Translations under genes and position numbers: made by a program
In this document: piece by piece, positions 48,043 through 49,222 of the stretch
Layout: each line of letters opens with the position of its first letter
How positions within the stretch are numbered: the stretch's first letter is position 1
Assembly: GCF_026210795.1 (NCBI RefSeq)
Contig: NC_089436.1
Span: 2,666,001 to 2,730,000 of the forward strand
Direction: 5' to 3'
Origin: Rhizophagus irregularis
Taxonomy: Eukaryota
DNA: 64,000 nt
The notes under the pieces: model-generated
Seen by the model: only the letters and a program-made list of their open reading frames with translations
Told to the model about the DNA's origin: nothing
Databases searched by the model: none

Positions 48043-48594
48043 ATGGCTTATGTAGAATGTAAAATTTGGCCTTTTTCTGGTGATATAGATCATATGGAAA
48101 AGCGTTGCGAAGCAATGAAAGAGGGTCATACCCACTATACCGCTAAGGCTTTAATCGATACTTCAGTTTGCAATAATTTTATTAGAAAAAACGTGGCTGA
48201 TAAACTTGGATTGAAGTATGCCAAACCTTCCAAAAATATCTTGAAGATAGTACCGAATGCATTAGGTTTTATAGACTGTCTAGATTTATCTTTAAAAATC
48301 AAAGGGGAAGATAGTTTAGTGACAACTGATTGCGATGACCCCTTAAACGATTTTGTGGTGGTCGAAGAACCTAAAGCTGATCTTGTATTCGAATTAAAAT
48401 GGCTGTGGTTACGAGAAGCAAAGATTGATATACGGAAAGATGGGATAAGGATCTATGGTAAATTTGTGCCATTCTTATTTAAGGATCCGAATACTGGAGA
48501 ATTTTTACCTGAGCAAAGCTCACGAAGTAAGCTCAGATTTGATAAACAGATCCACGAAGTGAGCTCTGTGATATATCCGAAGGGTACAAAGTAA
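48043..48594 (+). CDS. Retropepsin-like aspartic protease fold protein
   Basis: ALIDTSVCNNFIRKNVADKLGL resembles the ALIDSGA..NFI..A..LGL consensus but has DTS instead of D[TS]G; DLVFELKWL resembles DLILGxxWL. Confidence 0.65.
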   Translation: MAYVECKIWPFSGDIDHMEKRCEAMKEGHTHYTAKALIDTSVCNNFIRKNVADKLGLKYAKPSKNILKIVPNALGFIDCLDLSLKIKGEDSLVTTDCDDPLNDFVVVEEPKADLVFELKWLWLREAKIDIRKDGIRIYGKFVPFLFKDPNTGEFLPEQSSRSKLRFDKQIHEVSSVIYPKGTK

Positions 48595-48796
48595 AAAAAT
48601 TCCTATGTCGTGGTGAAGGCCACCTCTCCGTTATTACGGTTTTATGTACCATTTAACATTCTTATTTTTTTCTCATTATTTTCACGTATTTTCTTGATTT
48701 TGGCAATATCACTTTGTGAATTGTACGGGATAAAAAATTAGCTTATTAGAAAATCGGATGGAAACCTCTTCGATCAATCTCCAACTGACTATATTT

Positions 48797-49222
48797 TTAC
48801 TTCGTACCCTCTGGGTAAATACTTTCTGCTTTGATCGCCTCCTCTATTGCGTTTTCTATCTCATTAGTGACCATAGGTCGTTCCTCTTTGGATAACTCGT
48901 AATATAATTTGTATAGGTGTTCTACACTTTTGAGAAGATTTTTCTTATTCGCATACCATTTTCTGTATCTCGTTATTTTTATATTATACGCCTCATCATC
49001 TGGAAATAGCATTACAGCGACATTTCTTACGTATTCATCGGGATTCTCTTCTTGCCGTAGTCTGCTCACGTAACCAGCATATTCTCTTATAAACTTACTG
49101 TCCTTCCTGTATCGTAAACGAAATCCTTCTTCCATTATTTTGATCTGTGCTTTTTCTATGTCTTTCCATGTGATTGTACCTTCTGAACTTGTTCCTTCTG
49201 AAACTGAACCGTTATCTTCCAT
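48797..49222 (-). CDS. Hypothetical protein, 141 aa, downstream of pPolB
   Basis: Clean intronless ATG ORF with charged, helical-looking composition. No motif recognised. Confidence 0.7.
   Translation of the reverse strand: MEDNGSVSEGTSSEGTITWKDIEKAQIKIMEEGFRLRYRKDSKFIREYAGYVSRLRQEENPDEYVRNVAVMLFPDDEAYNIKITRYRKWYANKKNLLKSVEHLYKLYYELSKEERPMVTNEIENAIEEAIKAESIYPEGTK

Follow-up and report, generated by a model that had tools for sequence, protein, structure and literature searches.

A 30-nucleotide inverted repeat across the stop codons of two convergent genes in a putative Maverick/Polinton-like remnant of Rhizophagus irregularis

We analysed a window of 64,000 nucleotides (nt) from the mycorrhizal fungus Rhizophagus irregularis (contig NC_089436.1, positions 2,666,001 to 2,730,000), in which two convergent genes of what appears to be a Maverick/Polinton-like remnant end in almost the same peptide. 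The first gene is an open reading frame (ORF) at 48043..48594(+), which encodes a protein of 183 amino acids (aa) with a predicted retropepsin fold of the Ddi1 RVP type. The second gene, at 48797..49222(-), encodes a helical protein of 141 aa and belongs to a family that is encoded directly downstream of a DNA polymerase gene. Where the source names an organism, the relatives of both proteins come from Glomeromycota only (Rhizophagus, Funneliformis, Diversispora, Gigaspora, Racocetra, Cetraspora, Ambispora and Paraglomus), and the others are environmental sequences. A scan of the window found no second copy of either gene.

The last codons of the 183-aa ORF, ATA TAT CCG AAG GGT ACA AAG TAA, encode IYPKGTK and a stop, and those of the 141-aa ORF, ATT TAC CCA GAG GGT ACG AAG TAA, encode IYPEGTK and a stop. 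Codon reading confirmed both this shared ending and the pattern of differences given in a preliminary description of this DNA. The final eight codons differ at five nucleotides, four of them synonymous third positions and one a first position (the K/E exchange), and six of the seven residues are identical. At the DNA level the likeness is a 30-nt imperfect inverted repeat with 24 of 30 positions matched (80% complementary) and 190 nt between the arms. It corresponds to the decayed inverted repeat of about 27 bp around a spacer of about 200 bp that the preliminary description had offered as its alternative. The left arm, at 48571..48600(+), comprises the last seven codons of the 183-aa gene, its stop codon and 6 nt beyond it. 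The right arm, at 48791..48820(-), comprises an Ile codon, the TAC codon, five more codons and the stop codon of the 141-aa gene, and likewise extends 6 nt past the stop. The spacer occupies 48601..48790. Likeness between the arms breaks off abruptly at 48571 and 48820. The repeat sits in register on the two stop codons, and it is the longest among 60 inverted pairs in 47000-50000.

The repeat is real, unique within the window and more than chance would produce. A degenerate 24-nt motif matches twice in the 64 kb, once in each arm, with 0.01 matches expected and two or more matches in none of 100 shuffles. Inverted repeats with at least 24 of 30 positions matched within 300 nt form five clusters in the real window, two of them of low complexity, while 40 block-shuffles at the same threshold gave a mean of 0.175 clusters per window. 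AT-rich DNA can thus yield about 0.18 such repeats per 64 kb, but the figure falls to 0.025 per window when the arm GC is at least 0.25, and the register of this repeat on two stop codons also speaks against accident. We regard a chance resemblance as extremely unlikely. Apart from the arms themselves, comparison of the DNA of 48470-48830 with 17 related metagenome loci and with the rest of the window gave short, chance-level matches only. The arm motif has no exact match in a viral contig collection.

GT donor-like sites are present in both arms, and two public gene models splice out of them. Model P0085 joins IYPKGT (48590/48744) to a small plus-strand ORF at 48758..48895, and model P0083 joins IYPE (48808/48434) to the antisense of the 183-aa gene (tblastn 48433..48374). 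These splices are probably annotation artefacts.

The 141-aa family comprises 39 matches including the window protein. The AlphaFold2 model of the window protein (pLDDT 84.4) has six helices, with residues 135-141 at low confidence, and finds no fold match in the PDB at E≤0.001. None of the 29 aligned relatives carries the tail; they end instead in ...AES, ...AENI, ...DDE and similar sequences. That alignment omits nine short or partial matches, and with these included the motif YP.GT is absent from all 38 other matches. Among the 82 proteins collected for both families, YP.GT occurs only in the two window proteins and in the R. clarus protein P0043. The 141-aa family as a whole ends about six to seven residues before the end of the window protein. 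In two metagenome relatives with 79-80% identity (L001 and L002), the gene ends ...GAA TCA TAA and is followed by unrelated DNA, and the right arm is absent. After the 141-family stop in these same two loci (L001 ~1285-1362 and L002 ~400-480), an apparent partial second 141-family C-terminus (...ITEEEISNAREDLL...) was recognised by eye; it appears to be a small tandem remnant.

Near-identical copies within R. irregularis differ at this point. P0084 (CAB4444055.1; 97% identity) and P0004 (CAB4444448.1; 96% identity) both end ...KAESI, P0083 (CAB4411780.1; 95% identity) continues ...IYPE, and the more distant P0003 (76% identity) ends ...AENI at the same column as the stop of P0084 and P0004. 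The codon that follows ...KAESI is the TAC of Tyr136 in the window, at 48815..48817(-). It is a stop in two of the three further near-identical copies, that is, in two of four copies when the window is included, and Tyr in the other two; reading through it adds YPEGTK. The 141-aa tail is thus likely to be only a strain-variable read-through extension and not a functional tag. The preliminary description had proposed a shared C-terminal tag under selection on the peptide and had named the lack of the peptide in orthologues as evidence to the contrary. Relatives of the 141-aa protein do lack it, and the proposal is not supported in this family.

The same gene carries a second small variant near its N-terminus. 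SEGT occurs there twice, as previously noted, and we trace this to a 15-nt tandem duplication at 49174..49202(-) (49174-49187 and 49189-49202) that gives SEGTSSEGT. The duplication is also present in P0084 and is absent from P0083 and from all more distant relatives.

For the 183-aa protein, the AlphaFold2 model (pLDDT 74.8, with the tail 159-183 below 50) has 25 PDB matches at E≤0.001, the best at 1.7e-05, and the top ones are all Ddi1 RVP domains. On this model the protein has a retropepsin fold, while Pfam gave no match above threshold. Residues 37-41, encoded at 48151-48165(+), read L-I-D-T-S/T in the family, compared with D-T/S-G in active retropepsins. D39-T40 is nearly invariant, and the next residue is S in the window protein (S41) and S or T in its relatives, never the retropepsin G. 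Judging from these residues, the family is possibly a non-catalytic or atypical retropepsin member. No relative of it was found in the viral contig collection.

The 183-aa family comprises 43 matches including the window protein. Among the 42 others, the tail is found only in P0043 from R. clarus (GES83643.1; IYPNGTK) and, in part, in P0046 from R. diaphanus (RGB38847.1), which is truncated at ...IIYP. The remaining aligned relatives lack it and end soon after an FVPF motif. IYPKGTK is thus the native C-terminus of a small subclade of this family. Searched with phmmer, the 43-aa tail matched only P0043, P0046 and, at E=9e-4, P0087 among 1.84 billion representative proteins; P0087 is a long repeat protein matched over tail residues 2-19 only, and we judged it to be unrelated. 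A word-based search for the tail in longer proteins found none, which is weak evidence, and YP.GT occurs neither in the six reading frames of the 17 related loci nor elsewhere in the window. The suggestion that the element proteins share this ending in general is not borne out by that protein library, in which the tail is confined to the 183-family subclade and occurs in no other family. An origin of the 183-aa tail as a relic of an integrase C-terminus (...EYPPKW...) was considered and rejected, as its local alignment scores were reached by 282 to 1544 of 2000 shuffles.

These distributions bear on the idea of a function for the heptapeptide, [S][IV]IYP.GTK, as a short linear motif, such as a sorting, packaging or degradation tag, or a Tyr-Pro site for the retropepsin-like protein itself. 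An aromatic residue followed by Pro is a classic cleavage dipeptide of retroviral proteases; I-Y-P opens both tails, and one of the two bearers has the retropepsin fold in its model. Both tails have low confidence in the AlphaFold2 models and are predicted to be disordered, which is the usual setting for linear motifs. The high identity of the two peptides over mostly synonymous DNA differences fits such a function as well. However, the motif is conserved in neither family. It is missing from all other members of the 141-aa family, is polymorphic between Tyr and stop within R. irregularis, is restricted to a few members of the 183-aa family, and is found on no third protein family. Even among its bearers, R. 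diaphanus P0046 stops at IIYP and R. clarus P0043 has N in place of K. The triplet of the putative protease is D-T-S and not D-T/S-G. A functional motif is quite improbable on this evidence. The narrower proposal, that the ending ...[SV]-I-Y-P-x-G-T-K is an aromatic-Pro docking or cleavage site for the retropepsin-fold protein of the element, captured by its 141-aa neighbour through a 30-base reverse copy, is highly unlikely. If it were true, a mobile element would have spread a processing signal between its own genes by inverted duplication. A functional tail gained in this manner would show, on a small scale, how inverted duplication can capture a motif; the evidence is against it.

The four synonymous differences had been taken to favour selection on the peptide, and this part of the preliminary description stands only in nominal terms. 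Four of five differences being synonymous has a probability of 0.045 under a binomial model and of 0.012-0.017 by simulation, with full neutrality assumed. Both values are post hoc, because the pair was picked out for its matching peptides. The 183-gene arm is coding sequence in three species, and if constraint acted on this arm alone the probability weakens to about 0.06 (hand arithmetic). Three sources of the bias are conceivable: constraint that acts on the 183-gene arm only, descent of the arms from two coding copies, and chance, given that the pair was selected post hoc.

If the arms go back to two coding copies, the right arm would be all that is left of the 3' end of an inverted second 183-like gene. 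Two Maverick copies would have been rearranged tail to tail, a later deletion would have brought the remnant against the 141-aa gene, and both arms would have diverged while each coded for the same tail. A synonymous-biased set of differences is the pattern expected of two paralogous coding ends, the 20% nucleotide divergence of the arms lies within the paralogue range of the 183-aa family, and indels and mosaic joints are seen here among paralogous copies. On the other hand, the likeness ends sharply at 30 nt, and no more 183-like sequence follows beyond 48820 or in the minus strand of the spacer. The remnant would, moreover, have had to join the 141-aa ORF precisely and in frame. We consider this history, taken as a whole, unlikely.

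Contigs of sequencing runs place the left arm on an indel between paralogues. In the runs X6, X8 and X11, a paralogous copy of the 183-aa gene shows a contig joint from 48474 to 48717 with CTTA between them. The segment at 48475..48715(+), 241 nt long, is absent from the paralogue in the same genomes; on it lie the tail-coding part of the gene (aa 145-183) and the left arm, together with 115 nt of the spacer. A loose contig end before 48717 encodes ..IYGIFVPFL (hand translation), and 48716..48733(+), now inside the spacer, translates as VNCTG and a stop. This VNCTG relic of a short, paralogue-type C-terminus resembles the ...FVPFLVNYTG end of P0042 and P0086. The joint, the loose end and the relic together indicate that the 183-aa tail and the left arm lie on an indel of about 241 nt between paralogues. 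We consider insertion of this segment more likely than its deletion, because the C-terminus of R. clarus P0063 is likewise short and of the ...Y.G type (...IKKYMG).

The copy number of the arms was read from the same kind of evidence. In X6, X10 and X5, each arm lies under one contig only, at single-copy depth (at least 80% likeness), and the interior of the spacer (~48622-48769) is multi-copy, with several paralogous contigs. No variant letters were seen in the arms in contigs of X6, X8, X11, X16, X10, X17 or X5; X17 is labelled metatranscriptomic and is flagged as probably DNA.

These data weigh on the possibility that the arms are the terminal inverted repeats of a miniature inverted-repeat transposable element (MITE) or foldback element of about 250 bp, inserted between the convergent genes. 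Both ORFs would then read into the element and stop at its mirrored TAA. The imperfect 30-nt repeat around a short AT-rich spacer of 190 nt has the right shape, the spacer interior has additional genomic copies, and TA adjoins each arm. However, the cover of each arm by a single contig in three genomic runs speaks against multi-copy MITE ends, and the paired MITE ends that the preliminary description had allowed for are not what the arms represent in these runs. The motif occurs only twice in 64 kb, and in R. clarus and R. diaphanus the left arm codes for conserved protein sequence. The flanks outside the arms, GAGCTCTGTG and ACTTTCTGCT, have no common direct repeat that could be a target-site duplication, and only the self-complementary TA inside the arms is shared. 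The boundaries of the paralogue indel (48475-48716) do not coincide with the arm positions. We therefore hold an inserted MITE or foldback element to be improbable. Two compact hairpin-type inverted repeats elsewhere in the window, at 33659-33794 (27 nt, 93%, 82-nt loop) and 42668-42802 (32 nt, 94%, 71-nt loop), show that clearer repeats of this kind are present in the region, and they qualify better than the 30-nt repeat as MITE or foldback candidates.

The repeat might also be kept as a nucleic-acid structure, either as a long-range stem for 3'-end formation or termination of the convergent transcripts or as a source of double-stranded RNA. In the fold of 48560-48830 with minimum free energy, the arms do pair with each other (z = -2.27, a fold that 3 of 200 shuffles equal), and both hold AAGTAAAAA right at the gene ends. 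However, the z-score is that of any 24/30 repeat, a loop of 190 nt is unlike known terminator hairpins, and Rfam gave no match at E≤1 across 48300-49100. In L001, L003 and L004, where the spacers are also about 200 nt long, the convergent stops are not bridged by any repeat of this kind. Most related loci, with stops 2-8 nt apart or overlapping, leave no room for one. In six other loci no more than 9 nt separate the convergent stops, or these overlap. In L005 (1163-1166), L006 (2607-2616), L008 (743-746), L009 (489-492) and L011 (504-520), the 141-family and integrase stops lie 2-8 nt apart or the 3' ends overlap by up to 17 nt, a remarkably close convergent arrangement. A structural role is very unlikely.

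The explanation that we favour, with moderate confidence, is that the two genes converge on a 30-nt imperfect inverted repeat, which happens to take in both stop codons in this probable Maverick/Polinton-like remnant, and that the matching protein ends are a by-product of this repeat and not a selected tag. The right arm would be, or have been, the 3' flank of the 141-aa gene. Template switching during replication or repair would have copied a short stretch in reverse complement from one gene to the other, with the 3' end of the 183-aa gene on one side and, on the other, the 141-aa gene at its 3' end or in its flank. Copying could have gone in either direction between the arms. A single-base switch between stop and Tyr at 48815-48817 would then let translation of the 141-aa gene run six codons into the mirrored sequence and halt at the mirrored TAA, reproducing the ending of its neighbour. 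The peptides end alike because the mirrored arm happens to be read in the same frame. A local inverted duplication fits the indel patchwork seen among the paralogous copies. The feature is genuine, and on this explanation it is nothing out of the ordinary: an eroded short inverted repeat that mimics a shared C-terminal tag, within a rearranged Maverick-like remnant.

Several observations weigh against this explanation or limit it. That other R. irregularis copies carry the one-base change at TAC and the right arm downstream of their stop is suggested by their protein ends only. Characters common to the four R. irregularis copies conflict with any single tree, and the switch may have been a loss or a gain of the stop. 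The 20% divergence of the arms means that the event was not recent, and template switching in particular is a proposed mechanism. Four synonymous differences out of five would also be unlikely if both arms had drifted freely, so that some constraint on the peptide in both arms, or an origin from two coding copies, may have played a part.

Mutations in which template switching gives rise to short inverted repeats, or homogenises them, are described as an established kind (PMC5453318, PMC8604942). In the cases described in these sources, a few tens of bases are reverse-complemented within a few hundred bases, a hairpin-capable repeat results, and coding DNA can change by several residues at once. 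The 30-nt length and 190-nt spacing found here fit the short range described there. Unlike those mutations, the arms in the window are 20% diverged, as expected of an old event, and the mechanism would have to be deduced from the repeat that remains. The variation at Tyr136 also resembles known stop-loss and stop-gain polymorphisms, in that near-identical conspecific copies either stop after ...KAESI or go on with YPEGTK, and in that the extension is short, predicted to be disordered and absent from the wider family. It differs from them in that the extension copies the C-terminus of the neighbouring gene, the flank being an inverted copy read in the same frame. This is an unusual coincidence and not a different kind of event. 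Identical C-terminal peptides on unrelated convergent ORFs can thus come from a short inverted repeat and a stop switch without any function, and similar cases should be read with caution. The locus also documents a patchwork of small-scale indels, together with polymorphism between strains, where the 3' ends of Maverick-like genes lie close together in Rhizophagus.

The assignment to a Maverick/Polinton-like remnant concerns the context of the repeat and not the repeat itself. Upstream of the 141-aa gene, on its strand, an ORF at 49325..52462(-) encodes a protein-primed family-B DNA polymerase of 1045 aa (PF03175, DNA_pol_B_2; E=1.1e-14, 54.7 bits against a cutoff of 25.8). The N-terminal part of this polymerase (51176-52462(-)) contains an Endonuclease VII-like domain (PF02945, E=2e-07) and zinc-finger-like Cys/His patterns, and a PDB sequence search with the polymerase returned nothing significant. 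Some ORFs near the polymerase gave no Pfam match. Among the 17 related loci, 6 have the 141-family gene directly after the polymerase gene and 12 have a convergent rve integrase after the 141-family gene; a retropepsin-like gene also occurs in related loci. In contrast, the window has no integrase beside this polymerase. As the architecture fits Mavericks while the window copy lacks an integrase here, we interpret the locus as a probable remnant. Mavericks/Polintons are self-synthesising, virus-like mobile elements. Maverick elements have been reported as expanded in Glomerales (PMC8647823, PMC11952901).

Other parts of the window contain further traces of such elements and of neighbouring genes. 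Beside the 183-aa gene, an ORF at 46124-47632(-) carries a Crinkler effector N-terminal domain (PF20147, E=1e-28), and the gene model P0039 fuses 141-family residues to Crinkler-like sequence matching 47261-47452. The stretch 37539-39515 contains a fragment of another polymerase (PF03175), which is distinct from the first and has 40% identity to the 668-aa ORF of L006. After it, at 39372-39515, come 46-60 residues left over from the C-terminus of an rve integrase, the only integrase sequence in the window. This is another decayed Maverick-like copy.

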